64,000 nucleotides of DNA. Origin: Treponemataceae bacterium. GTDB taxonomy: Bacteria; Spirochaetota; Spirochaetia; Treponematales; Rectinemataceae. The DNA lies in NCBI GenBank assembly GCA_963667725.2, contig CAXXHO010000003.1, positions 1,952,001 to 2,016,000 of the forward strand, written 5' to 3'. The position numbers were made by a program, and so were the translations under genes. Positions 57,810 to 63,994 of this stretch are shown piece after piece; within the stretch, counting starts at the first letter, position 1, and the number at the start of each line of letters is the position of its first letter. Below the pieces are notes generated by a model, which worked only from the letters and a program-made list of their open reading frames with translations, made no database searches and was not told the origin of the DNA.

Positions 57810-58813
57810 TCGAATTCATCGTAAACGTATTTACCTCGGCCAATTATTGGTTCATCGTGCTGCGTTCCACGGCGCCGATTCTCCTCGTCACCCTGGGCGC
57901 CGTTATCACTGAATCCGCGGGCATCAAAAATATGGCGCTCGAAGGATCAATGCTCTGGGCAGCCCTTGTCGGCGTCATCGTCAGCTCCTGGACGGGCAGC
58001 GCCTGGCTGGGCCTCCTCGGGGGCATCCTCGCCGCGGTGGCCATCGCCCTTACCCTGGGGCTCTTCGCCCTCAAGCTGGACGCCAACGCCGTGCTCTGCG
58101 GCGTCGCCCTCAACCTCTTCTCGACGGGCGGAACGGTATTCGTCCTCTTCTCCCTCACGGGAGACAAGGGAATTTCCTCTTCGCTGGCGAGTAAAACCCT
58201 CCCCTTCATCAAGATTCCATTCATCCAGGATATTCCCTGGCTGGGTAAGGTGATATCGGGACAGAACGTGGTCATCTGGCTCGCGATAGCGGCCGTGGTC
58301 GTCGTCCATTTCATCATGAACAAAGCCACAATTGGACGGAGAATCAAGGCGACCGGCGAAAATGTGGAAGCGGCCAAGGCGGCGGGCATCGACCCCGATC
58401 ATATCAAGTTCTTTACCCTCATCGTCTCGGGCGTCCTCGCGGGCATCGCCGGATGCTTCCTCAGCATGGGATACACCTCCAACTTCACCTCCGGAATAGC
58501 GGCAGGCCGCGGCTATGTGGCCAACGCCGCCCAGGTCGTCGCGGGCGGTACCGCCGTGGGAGCGATCTTCGCATCCCTGATCTTCGGCCTCACCGACGCC
58601 ATGGCCACCTACCTGCAGAACGTCGGCCTGCCGCCCGAACTCATCCAGGCCCTGCCTTATTTCGTGACCATTCTCGGCTTCATCGTCGTTACCCTGATCC
58701 GCGACAGGCGCGAGTCCATCCGCAAGAAGAAGCTCTTCGAGGGCAAGCTGCCGAAAGGCGGGCTGAAGCCCGTCATGACGGGCTCGGACGCGGGCGGAGC
58801 GACGCCGGTATGA
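57806..58813 (+). CDS. Nucleoside ABC permease 2
   Basis: ESAGIKNMALEG, IKATGENVEAAKAAGI, AGRGY, ALPYFVT. Confidence 0.9.
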   Translation: MIEFIVNVFTSANYWFIVLRSTAPILLVTLGAVITESAGIKNMALEGSMLWAALVGVIVSSWTGSAWLGLLGGILAAVAIALTLGLFALKLDANAVLCGVALNLFSTGGTVFVLFSLTGDKGISSSLASKTLPFIKIPFIQDIPWLGKVISGQNVVIWLAIAAVVVVHFIMNKATIGRRIKATGENVEAAKAAGIDPDHIKFFTLIVSGVLAGIAGCFLSMGYTSNFTSGIAAGRGYVANAAQVVAGGTAVGAIFASLIFGLTDAMATYLQNVGLPPELIQALPYFVTILGFIVVTLIRDRRESIRKKKLFEGKLPKGGLKPVMTGSDAGGATPV

Positions 58814-60213
58814 GCGGTCCAGCCGCCCCGGGCGCCCTCGCCGATTTCATCGTCGAGGGCGCCGTCATCCTCTGCCTGGATCCCGAATGGCGAATCTTCG
58901 AACCAGGCTACCTCGCGGTGCGCGACGGCCGGATCAGCGCCGTCGGCCCCGCCGAAGAGGGCGCGGCCATCCAGGCCAAGCGGCGCGTCGACGCCGCGGG
59001 CAAGCTTCTCATGCCAGGCTTCGTCAACACCCACACCCACGTTCCCATGTCGGCCTTCCGCGGCGCCTGCGAAGACGTCAAGGACAGGTTGATCCGCTTC
59101 CTCTTCCCCCTCGAGCGCGACCTCGTGCGGCCGGAGCTCGTCTACTGGTCGACGCTCTACTGCCTCACCGAGATGGCGCGATCGGGCACCACCACCTTCG
59201 CGGACATGTACTATTTCGAGGATGAAGTCGCCAAGGCGACGAAAAAAGCCGGCATGCGCGCCCTCCTCGGGGAGACCGTGCTCGGCCAGGCCGCGCCCGA
59301 CGCAGCCCAGGCCTACGGCGGCATCGACTACGCGAAGGACTTCATCGCCGAATGGAAGAAAGACGGGCTCATCGATCCCTGCTTCGCCCCGCACGCTCCC
59401 TACACCGTGGATCGCGCCCACCTGGAACTGCTGCGCGACGAGGCCGAGCGCCTCGACACCGACATCATGATCCACGTGGCCGAGATGGATTTCGAGAACA
59501 GGCAGTTTTCGGAGAGCCACGGTTCGGTGCTGCGCTATCTCGATTCGATAGAAGGCCTTCTCTCCCCGCGCTTCCTCGCGGCCCACATGCTCTACGTGGA
59601 CGATGAGGACATTGCTCTCGCGGCGAAGCGCGGCATGCGCGTCGCCCACTGCCCGGCCTCGAACGCCAAATCGGGCCGCCTCATCTGCCCGGCCTGGCGC
59701 CTCGCGAAGGCCGGCGTCCCCCTGGGTCTCGCCACTGACGGCCCCCTGTCCGGAAACGGCATGGACATGGAAGGCGTGCTGGGTCTCTTCCCTAAAATGC
59801 AGAAGGTGAGGGAAGGCAGGCGCGAGATAGTGAGCGCCAGGGAAGCCCTGCGCGCCGCCACGTTGGGCGGCGCCGAAGCTCTCCATTTATCCGACAGGAT
59901 CGGATCGCTCGAAGAGGGTAAGCGCGCCGACTTCGTCATTGTCGACCTGAACGACTTCAACATGCAGCCGGTCTACGATTGGTATTCGACGGTCGTCTAC
60001 GCGATGAGACCGCACAACGTCGAGTCCGTCTTCGTGGAGGGCAGACAGATCGTGGAGGGGCGCAGGATGACGGGCTTCGACCAGGATGAGGCGATGGCGG
60101 AAATGATGAAGATAAAGGGCAACTGTTCGGCCTTCATCGCCGATATCGCCGCGAGGCTTGCCGACTCCGTCAAAGATCCATCGTCGATCGGTACGGCCTG
60201 GCGTTCGCCTTGA
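58810..60213 (+). CDS. Metal-dependent amidohydrolase (MTA/SAH deaminase-like)
   Basis: PGFVNTHTH, GTTTFADMY, APHAPYT, HVAE, HCPASN, LATDG, GSLEEGKRAD. ATGA overlap with permease 2. Confidence 0.9.
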   Translation: MSGPAAPGALADFIVEGAVILCLDPEWRIFEPGYLAVRDGRISAVGPAEEGAAIQAKRRVDAAGKLLMPGFVNTHTHVPMSAFRGACEDVKDRLIRFLFPLERDLVRPELVYWSTLYCLTEMARSGTTTFADMYYFEDEVAKATKKAGMRALLGETVLGQAAPDAAQAYGGIDYAKDFIAEWKKDGLIDPCFAPHAPYTVDRAHLELLRDEAERLDTDIMIHVAEMDFENRQFSESHGSVLRYLDSIEGLLSPRFLAAHMLYVDDEDIALAAKRGMRVAHCPASNAKSGRLICPAWRLAKAGVPLGLATDGPLSGNGMDMEGVLGLFPKMQKVREGRREIVSAREALRAATLGGAEALHLSDRIGSLEEGKRADFVIVDLNDFNMQPVYDWYSTVVYAMRPHNVESVFVEGRQIVEGRRMTGFDQDEAMAEMMKIKGNCSAFIADIAARLADSVKDPSSIGTAWRSP

Positions 60214-61614
60214 ACTCGGCCTTGGCTGCGGTGAGGATTTCCGGCTCGGTGACGAGCCCGAAGCCCGCGAGCGCCATGCAGGAGCCCGCCCAGCGCATGG
60301 CCTTGAAGGCCCATGTAGAACCGGAGGCCGCGCAGGACTGCCAGGTGTGGGCGCCGATGCCGAGAGGCCAGGTGGCCGCGTTCATCTGCCCCACCGGGAC
60401 GACATAGGACACGTCGCCCGTATCGAGAGAACCGCCTATCCTTTTCCCTTCACCAAAATCGCCCAACGTTCTGTGGATGGGCGATTTCAGTAAATCGAGC
60501 GGGGCGCCGATCGGCGCGAGGGTCGCTTTCCTGTCGTCTTTTCCACGGTCGCCTGGAGGCTTTTCGCGAAGGCGAGTTCCTCGGGCGTAGGCACGGGCAG
60601 GGGCAGGCTACCCATCGCCCTGTACAGAAGATCCTGGATGGCGTAGTTCGGCCTGTAATCGCACTTTCCGGCTTTTATCTCCGACGTGAAACTCGTCTCC
60701 GTCATGAGGGCCGCGCCCTGCGCCGCCTTCATTATGCGCTTCATGACGAGGGGAACGATATCGGCCGTCGGGGCGCGAACATAGAGAAAGGTCGCGGCGT
60801 GCGCCGGCACGATGTTGGGCCTGTCGCCGCCGTCGCTGATCACGTAGTGCAGAAGGATGCCGGGGCTGAGATGCTCGCGCATGAATTCGAGCGAAAAATT
60901 GAAGAGCTGGACGGCGTCGAGGGCCGATCTTCCCGCCTGAGGCGCCATGCCGGCGTGGCTCGCCCTGCCTTTGAAGGAAAAGACGAGGCTCAGGTTGGCG
61001 CTCGAGGTATAGCGGTGCGGCGTGTTCACGTCGGCGCCGTGCCAGGTCATGATGGCGTCGGCGTCGCTGAAGCGGCCGGCCTTCACCATGGGAATGCGCC
61101 CGAGCGATTCCTCGGCCGGGCAGCCGTAATATCTGACTCTTCCGGGGATGCCCCGCGCTTCGAGAATGTGGGCGAGGGTCTCGGCGGCGGCGAGAGAGCC
61201 AGCTCCGAGAAGATTGTGCCCGCAGGCGTGCCCCGGGGCTCCCTCGTTCGCGGGCTTTTTTTCGATGCCGCAGACCTGGGACATGCCAGGCAGCGCGTCA
61301 TATTCGCCCATGAAGGCGATGATGGGTCCCCCCGAACCGCGTTCGGCGACGAAGGAATGCTTCATCTCGGGGTACTCGGTCACCGAGAAGCCTTTGGAGG
61401 CGAGGCGCTTTTCATAGATGGCCGAAGAGCGCTCCTCGTGGAAGGCGACTTCGGGATGTTCCCAGATGTCGCGCGAGATCGCGTCGTATTCGGCGCCGTG
61501 GCGCGCGACGAATTCGGCTATTTCCGCGGCCGCGGACATTGTTGCGGACGGGACCGCGGCCAAGGCCGGCGCCGCGATCGTTTGAGCGTTCTGGAGAGCA
61601 TTGATCTTCTTCAT
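60170..61614 (-). pseudogene. AbgB-like M20 amidohydrolase interrupted by a 1-nt frameshift at ~60539-60542
   Basis: N-part has GEYDALPG, GHACGHNL, GCPAEE, GRSALDAV. C-part GSLDTGDVSYVVP..AHTWQ is in the -1 frame. Adding one A to GAA-AAG restores a continuous ORF. Confidence 0.8.
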
Positions 61615-61639: not shown

Positions 61640-62470
61640 TCAGAGACCGGCCTTAGCCTTCACGCGACTGCGTCCATCCTTGGCGAACTGGAAACCCGCG
61701 TTGAGTTCCAGTGCCTTTCCGTAGATTTCATAGGCGCGTTTGTACTGGCCAAGTATTTCCTTCACGGCGCCCAGCCTGTACCACCAGTAGTACATGTTCT
61801 TTTCCATCGTGACGGCTGTTGAAAAGGCTATGTCGGCGTGTTCGTACTTCTTGAGCCTCATGTAGCATTCGCCCACGTAATAATAGGCGCTGGACATTCT
61901 TTCCTCGCGCTCGGGGGCCCGCGCGAAATAATCCGCGAAATATTGAAGCGCTTCCTCGTTGCGGTCGAGGAAGTAGAGCGATTCGGCCAAAGTCTCCATA
62001 ATCCTGAAATCCTGGACGGTCTGGAGCGCCTTCTGGCCTATGGTCACGACTTCCTTGTGGCGATCCAAGCGAAAAAGGTTCCAGCACTGGAGGCTGATAA
62101 AGTCAGGGTTGGCGGAGTCTGAGGGAAGGAGTTTCTCGATCATAGCGAGCGAGGAGGAGAAAACCTTGTCCGCTTCGGCTTCCCTGCCGGCCATCTGGAG
62201 CTGGCGTCCTCGCTGATAAAGTTGGGTCGCCGTCTGGTAGGAGGAGCCAGAGGGCGCCGGCTTCGGCGCGGCTGCTGGGTTTGGCGCCGCCGCTGGAGCC
62301 ACCGGCTTCGGCGCTGCCGTGATTGTGGTCGTAGTCGCGCTCGTGACGTTCGCTTCGGGCACTTCCTGCCTGCCTTGGCCATAGGAGGCGGTGACGGCCG
62401 CGAAGGCCAGGACCAGGCAGACCAGCGTGGATTTAGGCGGCAATGCGCGCCGCCGCCTTCGAGTAACCAT
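61640..62470 (-). CDS. Exported tetratricopeptide-repeat protein
   Basis: Arg-rich n-region plus hydrophobic signal, Ala/Pro linker, TPR motifs AYYYVGECY..KKYEHADIAF and WYRLG. Confidence 0.88.
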   Translation of the reverse strand: MVTRRRRRALPPKSTLVCLVLAFAAVTASYGQGRQEVPEANVTSATTTTITAAPKPVAPAAAPNPAAAPKPAPSGSSYQTATQLYQRGRQLQMAGREAEADKVFSSSLAMIEKLLPSDSANPDFISLQCWNLFRLDRHKEVVTIGQKALQTVQDFRIMETLAESLYFLDRNEEALQYFADYFARAPEREERMSSAYYYVGECYMRLKKYEHADIAFSTAVTMEKNMYYWWYRLGAVKEILGQYKRAYEIYGKALELNAGFQFAKDGRSRVKAKAGL

Positions 62471-62529
62471 TATTGCAAAACCTCATTGATTGCCGCGGCA
62501 GCTCGCCGCCGCGCTCTTTTCCCAATCAT
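62470..62529 (-). CDS. Putative mini-ORF MIGKRARRRAAAAINEVLQ (19 aa)
   Basis: ATG overlaps the upstream TGA (ATGA); its TAA overlaps the TPR ATG (TAATG). Confidence 0.45.
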   Translation of the reverse strand: MIGKRARRRAAAAINEVLQ

Positions 62530-62579
62530 TGTAGTACCTCGTTAATAGCCGCAGCTCGCCGCCGCCTTCGAGTTGCCAT
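62526..62579 (-). CDS. Putative mini-ORF MATRRRRRAAAINEVLQ (17 aa)
   Basis: ATG overlaps the oxidoreductase stop (TAATG); ends in a TGA overlapping the next ATG. Confidence 0.45.
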   Translation of the reverse strand: MATRRRRRAAAINEVLQ

Positions 62580-63994
62580 TATTGTAAAACTTCATTTATT
62601 GCGGCGGCGGCGCGTCTCCCCTCGCCCATGGCGAGAATGACGGTGGCCGCCCCAAGCACGATGTCGCCGCCCGCGTAGACGCGGTCGATGCTCGTCTTCT
62701 GTTTTTCGTCGACGAGGATATGGCCCCGCCTATCCACCTTGAGTTCGGGCGTCGTCCTGGATATGAGGGGGTTGGATTCGTTGCCCACGGCCACGATCAC
62801 GGTGTCGAAGGGAACGACCGTCTCGCTTCCGCGTATGGCCACGGGGCTGCGCCTTCCCGATGCATCAGCCTCGCCTAGTTCGAAGGCCGTCACTTCCAGG
62901 CCGATGACCCTTCCGTTCTGGTCGCCGAGGACCCTCGCCGGGCTGCGCAGGAAATCGAAGATGATGCCCTCTTCCATGGCGTGGATCACTTCCTCGCCTC
63001 TGGCCGGCATTTCTTCCCTCGTCCGGCGGTAGAGGATATGGACTTCCTCGGCGCCCAGCCTCATGGCCATGCGCGCCGAGTCCATGGCGACGTTGCCGCC
63101 GCCGAGGACGGCCACCCTCCTTGAAGGATAGAGAGGCGTCGCGGCTTCTCCTTTCCTGTAGGCTTTCATGAGGTTGGTCCGGGTGAGGTATTCGTTGGCG
63201 CTGAAGACGCCGACGAGGTTTTCGCCGGGTATGTCCATGAATTTGGGCAGGCCCGCGCCGGTGCCGATGAAGGCGGCGCTGAAGCCGTCCTCCGTGAGGA
63301 GGGCCGAGAGTTTGCGGGTCCGGCCGACGAGGTAGCTCATCTCGAAGCTCACGCCCATGGATTCGAGGACGCCCGCCTCCGAGGCGACGAGAGCCTTGGG
63401 CAGCCTGAATTCCGGAATTCCGTACACCATGACGCCGCCGGCCTTGTGGAAGGCTTCGAAGACGACGACCTCGTGTCCCTGTCTTCTCACGTCCACGGCG
63501 CAGGTGAGTCCGGCGGGGCCGGCGCCCACGATGGCCACTTTCTTGCCGGTCGAGGCAGCGGCGGGAGGCGGCGCGAGGAGGCCTGAGTTCCGCTCGTAAT
63601 CGGCCACGAATCGTTCGATCCTGCCGATCTGGACGCCTTTTTCGACGCTCTTGAGCGCCTTGCCGAGAGTACAGGGCAGCTGGCACTGCTTTTCCTGGGG
63701 ACAGACTCTTCCGCAGATCGAGGGCAGGAGGTTCGTGCGCTTGATCACCGAAGCCGCTCCAGCGAAGTCCCCTTCCCTGACCTTCCCTATGAATCCGGGA
63801 ATGTCGACGCGGACGGGGCAGCCGGCGACGCAGGGCGCGTTCTTGCACTGGAGGCAGCGTTCCGCCTCCACCATGGCCTGATCAGGCGAATAGCCCGTGG
63901 CCACCTCGTCCATGTTGCTCCGACGCAGGTCCGGGTTCTGGTTGGGCATCTCCTGCACGGGAATCGCCATCCTGTCCCTGGGCGTCAGCGTCAT
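62579..63994 (-). CDS. NfnB/SudA-type NADPH-dependent flavo-Fe-S oxidoreductase (glutamate synthase small-subunit-like); 5' end may lie outside the window
   Basis: CLQCKNAPCVAGC, CGRVCPQEKQC..IGRIE, GAGPAGL, YGIPEFRLPK, GGGNVAMD, YRRTREEMPA, AGGDIVLGAATVILAMGEG. Confidence 0.93.
   Translation of the reverse strand: MTLTPRDRMAIPVQEMPNQNPDLRRSNMDEVATGYSPDQAMVEAERCLQCKNAPCVAGCPVRVDIPGFIGKVREGDFAGAASVIKRTNLLPSICGRVCPQEKQCQLPCTLGKALKSVEKGVQIGRIERFVADYERNSGLLAPPPAAASTGKKVAIVGAGPAGLTCAVDVRRQGHEVVVFEAFHKAGGVMVYGIPEFRLPKALVASEAGVLESMGVSFEMSYLVGRTRKLSALLTEDGFSAAFIGTGAGLPKFMDIPGENLVGVFSANEYLTRTNLMKAYRKGEAATPLYPSRRVAVLGGGNVAMDSARMAMRLGAEEVHILYRRTREEMPARGEEVIHAMEEGIIFDFLRSPARVLGDQNGRVIGLEVTAFELGEADASGRRSPVAIRGSETVVPFDTVIVAVGNESNPLISRTTPELKVDRRGHILVDEKQKTSIDRVYAGGDIVLGAATVILAMGEGRRAAAAINEVLQ

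Follow-up and report, generated by a model that had tools for sequence, protein, structure and literature searches.

A stretch of 64,000 nucleotides from a Treponemataceae bacterium (assembly GCA_963667725.2, contig CAXXHO010000003.1; the window), a free-living spirochaete, raises the question why one gene end should be written several times in a row. On its minus strand, an oxidoreductase gene is followed by two mini-open reading frames (mini-ORF 1 and mini-ORF 2) and then by the gene of a tetratricopeptide repeat (TPR) protein, and both mini-ORFs repeat the last residues of the oxidoreductase in spellings that differ only silently. The array is real, non-random, and lineage-variable, and is best read as a stack of swappable gene-end modules. 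With a probability of roughly 0.6, we consider these modules to be interchangeable and the mini-ORFs to be their by-products, kept open as a relay of reinitiating ribosomes toward the TPR gene. The parts of the junction are the following (positions in the window).

62579-63994, minus strand: GltD/NfnB-type oxidoreductase gene, 471 amino acids from the ATG at 63994 (list of open reading frames; Pfam Fer4_20 and Pyr_redox_2).
62605-62614, minus strand: Ala arm CGCCGCCGCC, 5' side of the predicted stem of unit 1 (stem analyses).
62579-62608, minus strand: copy 1, the working gene end AAAINEVLQ-stop in AT-rich spelling, with the Shine-Dalgarno (SD)-like GAGGT lost (GC content of third codon positions, GC3, and codon comparison with L061).
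62526-62579, minus strand: mini-ORF 1, 17 amino acids, a copy of the TPR start fused to the spare end copy 2 (orthologue in genome G001).
62558-62567, minus strand: Arg arm of unit 1, GGCGGCGGCG, reverse complement of the Ala arm (stem and alignment analyses).
62526-62555, minus strand: copy 2, a spare end with GAGGT ahead of mini-ORF 2 (spelling comparison of the ends).
62470-62529, minus strand: mini-ORF 2, 19 amino acids, an older TPR-type start MIGxxARRR joined to the spare end copy 3.
62470-62499, minus strand: copy 3, spare here but serving as the working end in a contig from run X6, with GAGGT ahead of the TPR start (X6 joint 62494/62604).
62495-62603, no strand: 109-bp presence/absence segment of two units (53 + 56 bp), flanked by the 5-nt direct repeat GCCGC (X6 contig).
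61640-62470, minus strand: TPR protein gene, 276 amino acids (list of open reading frames; Pfam).

The oxidoreductase ends in RRAAAAINEVLQ with its stop at 62579, mini-ORF 1 encodes MATRRRRRAAAINEVLQ, and mini-ORF 2 encodes MIGKRARRRAAAAINEVLQ. Mini-ORF 1 contains three Ala, one fewer than the four counted in an earlier reading of the locus made from the letters alone (the sequence-only reading). The N-terminus of the TPR protein is Arg-rich and then hydrophobic, resembling a signal peptide as read from its sequence. Mini-ORF 1 starts like the TPR gene itself (MxTRRRRR), mini-ORF 2 like the TPR genes of other genera (MIGxxARRR; compare MMKAPARRR in G005), and the latter type of mini-ORF 2 start is also present in G001, G025, and G020. 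As both mini-ORFs begin TPR-like and end oxidoreductase-like, the repeat unit is the whole junction: each unit of 53-56 bp comprises the last ~10 oxidoreductase codons, the stop/start overlap, and a TPR-type start. Tandem Repeats Finder assigned the array a period of 53 with 2.9 copies and 65% matches.

Tandem re-encoded gene ends, as claimed by the sequence-only reading, were confirmed in the sequence and in a second strain. Metagenome contig L062 carries the array identical letter for letter with seven flank differences across 601 nt, and a contig of run X5, from a different study than the best-matching runs, covers 62175-62714 with two differences; the two share flank differences and may represent one strain. 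G001 furthermore carries a diverged orthologous array. The genome assembly with its eight contigs and 6% contamination could invite the suspicion of an assembly artefact or a strain chimera, against which the sequence-only reading had cautioned; in view of the identical array between different flanks in L062, its presence in the X5 contig, and the diverged orthologue in G001, this is scarcely credible.

Pairwise comparison of the three AAAINEVLQ-stop copies over the last 10 codons gave 9/0, 4/0, and 8/0 silent/replacement differences. Under a uniform model of neutral change, these correspond to P values of 3e-6, 4e-3, and 1e-5, and a transition-biased simulation returned P values of 0.006 for four and 7e-5 for seven changes. 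The claim that the copies differ silently only and that their stop-start overlaps are intact therefore holds, and the counts are far from the neutral expectation. A genome-wide peptide echo screen of 8922 long ORFs, blind to ORFs of <150 codons and to degenerate copies, yielded 11 matches with only this locus being clear (the other nine were not followed further). Simple tandem duplication of the junction followed by neutral decay would be in line with the 5-nt direct repeat at the segment ends and with an exact duplication observed in G085. Yet the silent-only differences of 9/0 and 8/0 make this very unlikely, as does the finding that nine of the ten end codons differ inside one genome, compared with ~35% of body codons between genera.

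The junction was compared in a set of 53, drawn from 48 family genomes, with G030 adding a second copy, and from four metagenome contigs. This alignment across relatives, proposed by the sequence-only reading, revealed a varying copy number (0, 1, or 2 extra units). Extra end copies occur in nine junctions, with two each in the host genome G000 and in G001, one each in G025 and G020, and the remainder in five genomes of genus g10. Other members of the clade with a coupled TPR gene are devoid of extra units (G002, L061, G005, and L063), and on a tree built from the oxidoreductase body, some forks of which are poorly supported, lineages with and without the array are intermingled. Across the order, a strict pattern that missed G020 and the g10 units detected a doubled compact end in 3 of 401 genomes (G000, G001, and G025).

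The X6 contig, ~98.5% identical with 16 differences over 1080 nt, skips exactly the 109 bp of 62495-62603, and at its joint 62494/62604 five letters (GCCGC) fit either side. The joined form translates to a normal oxidoreductase C-terminus supplied by copy 3; since this contig lacks the 109 bp, copy 3 is its working gene end. The presence or absence of a whole block bounded by GCCGC is thereby shown, as is the ability of a spare to be the working end. Ten flank differences are shared between the X6 contig and array-bearing X5 contigs, which makes loss the likelier direction of the X6 event; we favor it without being sure. Older ends may also have been taken up by the TPR gene, the N-terminal codons of which resemble a decayed oxidoreductase end within the signal peptide (L008 and L044, first 50 nt past the stop). 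For such relics in TPR N-termini, G017 gives support (none of 63 controls reached its level), G090 and G087 give weak support, and L066 gives none.

The spellings themselves point in the same direction as these rearrangements. Copy 2 of G000 is only three silent changes away from the working end of G005 vs. nine from its own, and copy 2 of G001 two from that of G002 vs. six from its own. The working end of G000 is the outlier, with 7 of its last 12 codons differing from L061 vs. 12% in the gene body and a GC3 of 2/9 vs. 0.82 in the gene body. Working ends backed by modules are AT-richer (GC3 of 22/45 vs. 25/27 in g10 and of 20/36 vs. 36/45 in the TPR clade), a comparison among kin that are not independent. 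The distal-most spare is damaged in seven of the nine array genomes: by an A>D replacement and a 3-nt indel in G001, loss of the stop in G025 and G020, three replacements in G020, NE>RW in G085, and truncation or splitting in G011, G081, and G084. The second model of the sequence-only reading, stacked and formerly functional gene 3' ends left by allele replacement or integration, is thus supported in the sense of ends that have served or can serve the working gene, with copy number varying, copy 3 at work in X6, and spare spellings nearer to relatives' working ends. For its integrated element, no integrase-bearing candidate was found.

A module would accordingly consist of the last ~10 oxidoreductase codons, a stop overlapping the start codon, and 8-9 TPR leader codons ending in CGG-CGG-CG, which could pair back with the Ala codons. 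Whole modules would be gained and lost by recombination at short GC-rich repeats, either through slippage or through recombination with alleles of other strains, and the stem may aid both by drawing the unit ends together. The first module would provide the enzyme C-terminus and the last one the TPR start, leaving the modules between as chimeric mini-ORFs. Silent-only spellings would be expected if the copies diverged as working ends or were refreshed from them, while old distal spares decay. The mini-ORFs would be translated by termination-reinitiation and kept open since a break would starve the TPR gene; the mini-peptides would need no role of their own.

Related modules occur at further sites of the family. 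In genus g10, where this locus has no TPR gene, five of eight genomes carry units of 76-86 bp at the same oxidoreductase end, containing a conserved ATAGCGAGC-loop-GCGAGCGT hairpin motif beside an antisense of the unit's own start; G086 resembles an empty site among them. Four oxidoreductase ends lie in tandem in G085 (L071:1477-1760), 76 and 86 bp apart, each extra end being preceded by the ATAGCGAGC hairpin motif and an exact 162-bp tandem duplication being included. Of 69 family genomes, 19 contain the motif, which is also present behind rpsG and efp. Behind rpsG, an antisense arm of 15-20 nt in six of seven genomes matches each genome's own synonymous spelling. In G000 (C3 near 2068542, minus strand, outside the window), rpsG has behind it a terminator-like hairpin, a 15-nt stretch antisense to the gene's own final codons, and short repeats in tandem. 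Re-spelled copies of the rpsG end AHYRW-stop are stacked in G087, G092, and G021. An in-frame ATG is lacking from five intact spares of this kind in three genomes, and two of the five are without a start codon of any type; at least the first in each genome lies 3' of a terminator-like hairpin, as read from the sequence.

These modules suggest an alternative in which they would be mobile cassettes without genes, put in place by a dedicated recombinase or nickase that acts in trans. Each would insert a re-coded end with its antisense arm on the gene-proximal side and push older ends downstream, the window units being reduced forms that have lost the hairpin motif. We regard this as possible, albeit unlikely. 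The motif-bearing g10 units with their apparent empty site, the recurrence behind rpsG and efp, the arm tracking each genome's own spelling, the distal decay, and the AT-rich new working ends all speak for it. On the other hand, the window units are without the motif, which has no occurrence in G000, so that their descent from motif-bearing units would have to be presumed. A recombinase scan beside the modules, which took in 59 of 84 listed ORFs, found no integrase, transposase, or reverse transcriptase among the 57 ORFs around motif or module loci inside the family, with the sole integrase match lying outside it. Viral contigs gave no match to the gene end or to the hairpin motif when searched with exact patterns, and the exact 162-bp duplication in G085 means that ordinary duplication also acts. 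In a broader version, which we hold tentatively and consider hardly more probable, hairpin cassettes would overwrite the last codons of conserved genes (the oxidoreductase, rpsG, and perhaps efp) via a trans-acting enzyme and form a polar array of former ends; at the present locus, the TPR start would be captured too, each insertion replacing C-terminal codons together with the ribosome hand-over.

Three observations were made beside these modules. In G011 (L076:1290-2030), a small ORF and one with a PIN domain, likely a toxin-antitoxin pair inserted at the site, come directly after a truncated spare end. In G084 (L075:1240-1430), a further small palindromic insert, ~150 bp long, interrupts the spare end. 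In a genome outside the family, the hairpin motif (L123:1500-1522) is found ~300 bp from a phage-integrase ORF.

Returning to the stacked, interchangeable ends, the Arg run of the mini-ORFs has to be accounted for. The run CGG-CGG-CG and the Ala run GCC-GCC-GC are reverse complements of each other. In a gap-free alignment of 17 junction rows, the arm keeps a constant distance from the stop though the TPR start shifts; the third bases of the Arg codons are invariant, whereas N-terminal residues vary (A/V, K/M/I, I/M, G/E). RNAalifold predicted a stem of six pairs (columns 15-20/62-67) with a C-G/G-C swap in eight and eight rows; in genus g20, this swap turns one Arg into Pro with pairing kept. 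A 14-pair version of the stem was exceeded by 2 of 500 shuffles, and 13 of 14 single junctions folded formed the stem (z-scores -1.2 to -3.4). A permutation of stem energies over the 53 junctions was set aside, being confounded by kinship and GC content. We conclude with moderate support that the Arg run is a predicted hairpin arm as well as a signal-peptide start, fixed at the DNA level, and not a sensor of Arg. Scans for other signals at the junction were negative: terminator-like sites were absent from the minus strand of 62250-62800 (one on the plus strand vs. 0.7 expected), the promoter scan of the junction region found nothing, and the single Rfam match in 62300-62800 (19 bits vs. a cut-off of 50, E 0.73) indicates no family membership.

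The mini-ORFs appear to be coupled to their neighbors. All three overlaps are intact, reading TAATG, ATGA, and TAATG from the oxidoreductase through mini-ORFs 1 and 2 to the TPR gene. GAGGT within the Glu-Val codons precedes mini-ORF 2 and the TPR start at the spacing of an SD and is absent before mini-ORF 1. It is lost in the working ends of G000 and G025 and kept in all six spare ends of the TPR clade and in 5/5 listed single-unit ends; likewise, all six mini-ORFs of this clade are open and overlap their neighbors. The available part of PMC6728339 reports strict translational coupling in 13 of 14 tested overlapping pairs, and that of PMC5318159 a coupling strength varying between pairs. Termination-reinitiation (TeRe/UTNI) coupling as described in the accessible portion of PMC6728339 shares with our locus the 4-nt and 1-nt stop/start overlaps and the SD within the upstream gene, here found as three overlaps with GAGGT twice, and a possible pairing of the upstream ORF with the downstream start region. 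Unlike those pairs, the present case is a chain of three overlaps through duplicated junctions, with coupling being read from sequence alone. The mini-ORFs thus probably pass ribosomes on to the TPR gene, selection acting on their frame and overlap. This weaker form of the re-initiation relay proposed by the sequence-only reading, an open, translated, and coupled chain, is likely, whereas its tie to Arg-tRNA supply found no support.

Several findings weigh against interchangeable ends with by-product mini-ORFs. The stem of G000 itself reaches a z-score of only -1.85, the other stem register is without covariation, the stem is absent in G021, folds in wider context pick other pairings, and the compensatory change amounts in essence to a single event separating clades. 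Inverted matches of 10 nt are ordinary in G000 (37 of 2955 gene ends vs. 34 of 2791 mid-gene windows), and inverted repeats at gene ends show no general enrichment in this genome. The X6 contig is labeled as metatranscriptomic cDNA, so that a reverse-transcription skip is possible, although X6 has no depth on the array. The count of rpsG spares derives from a pattern that detects intact copies only. Furthermore, the orthologous copies 2 of G000 and G001 differ by three silent and no replacement changes (simulated P 0.024), their copies 3 are without replacement in INEVLQ, fewer than free decay predicts, and their spares together show five silent and no replacement changes in INEVLQ. Under the module reading, this lack of replacements is not fully explained. 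The g10 control is unclean, as two of four complete spares have a coupled start (ATGA in G030, TAG/GTG in G085). Taken together, the missing replacements in INEVLQ and the coupled starts in g10 make mild selection on the translated product conceivable, and the mini-ORF peptide may be under selection beside its relay role.

The missing replacements in INEVLQ also speak for purifying selection on the mini-ORF peptides, or on the translation of their codons, as a regulatory relay for the TPR gene, as do the intact overlaps, GAGGT in all six TPR-clade spare ends, the retention of mini-ORF 2 across three genera, and the strict coupling of most tested pairs in the available part of PMC6728339. Nevertheless, we rate it as rather improbable, since the close kin G002, L061, and the X6 contig lack these units and N-terminal residues vary while the Arg codons hold their third bases. 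Its strong form, in which the Arg runs sense Arg-tRNA, is highly improbable: besides the fixed third bases, the run is antisense to the Ala run and common to the TPR signal-peptide start, CGG accounts for 16% of Arg codons in the genome and is not rare, the coding strand has no terminator, and the downstream gene encodes a TPR protein, which is not an Arg pathway gene. Stacked former gene ends are favored over such peptides because the Arg run is fixed at the DNA level as a stem arm, because distal spares are damaged, and because silent re-spelling also occurs behind rpsG in copies without ATG.

One of the closest known systems is prophage e14 in the E. coli icd gene, where, according to the available portion of PMC13626634, icd becomes joined to the icdC fragment once the prophage is lost, which is visible as clustered synonymous changes. 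Within the scope of that portion, both cases share a second, largely synonymous 3' end of a protein gene downstream, which becomes the working end upon loss of the intervening DNA. A replacement 3' end restoring the gene was found here (the divergent AT-rich working end encodes the same peptide), as were a displaced end downstream and an empty site with a short core (X6, GCCGC; direction unsure). Unlike e14, the insert at our locus has 109 bp, several ends are stacked, and the units carry an antisense arm plus the next gene's start and are read as coupled mini-ORFs. Integrase and cargo were found neither in the 109-bp segment nor near the related family modules. The partial tRNA genes that integrating elements leave behind at attR, as far as described in the accessible part of PMC9897764, also represent target gene ends partly duplicated by insertion; compared with that description, the target is a protein gene here and no element of 9-23 kb separates the copies. 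As integrase and cargo are lacking, the array falls outside both families.

The tRNA-linked repeats of E. coli (tyrT type) consist of units in tandem, every one of which repeats the end of the gene before it; in contrast to these, a protein-gene end is repeated here, re-coded and with an antisense arm. Leader-peptide attenuators and amino-acid-sensing upstream ORFs feature a short ORF with a run of a single amino acid before a gene. The present junction differs in that no terminator/antiterminator lies between the mini-ORFs and the TPR gene, codons instead of residues are conserved, apparently for pairing (fixed third bases, Arg to Pro in g20), the target is unrelated to Arg, and the units are dispensable in close kin. 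Two further candidates were rejected. Integron attC sites recombine at G/TT, whereas the joint at our locus lies in GCCGC and the genome's own attC-like pattern has no match there. Copies generated by a diversity-generating retroelement differ only at adenines of the template repeat, whereas C/T and C/G differences were found among the present ones. A literature search on such gene-end modules, with subscription journals and older papers thinly covered, retrieved no relevant paper.

A silent-only pattern in tiny ORFs thus need not imply a functional peptide and can become a trap for small-protein discovery. The locus offers a compact and testable example of module-wise gene-end swapping: the empty site of its 109-bp segment is known, the end occurs in three spellings, and the genome has a second such locus. 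If it were true that an enzyme installs the units via the antisense arm, they would constitute an undescribed kind of minimal, target-matched mobile element.

Elsewhere in G000, ~100 attC-like sites are arranged in arrays (C1 400-33000, C5 405000-550000, C3 near 520000 and 1636000-1653000), and tyrosine-recombinase-like ORFs of 430-470 amino acids occur at C1 34405, C5 550877, and C7 36700; together, these form a large chromosomal integron. In the window, an M20 amidohydrolase gene 3' of the TPR gene (60170-61614, minus strand) is apparently split, a 375-amino-acid ORF ending at 60487 and a 98-amino-acid ORF in another frame resembling its C-terminal part. The stop of an amidohydrolase-like ORF on the plus strand (58453-60213) overlaps this convergent 98-amino-acid ORF; its listed start, deep within the permease gene upstream, is probably set too early.

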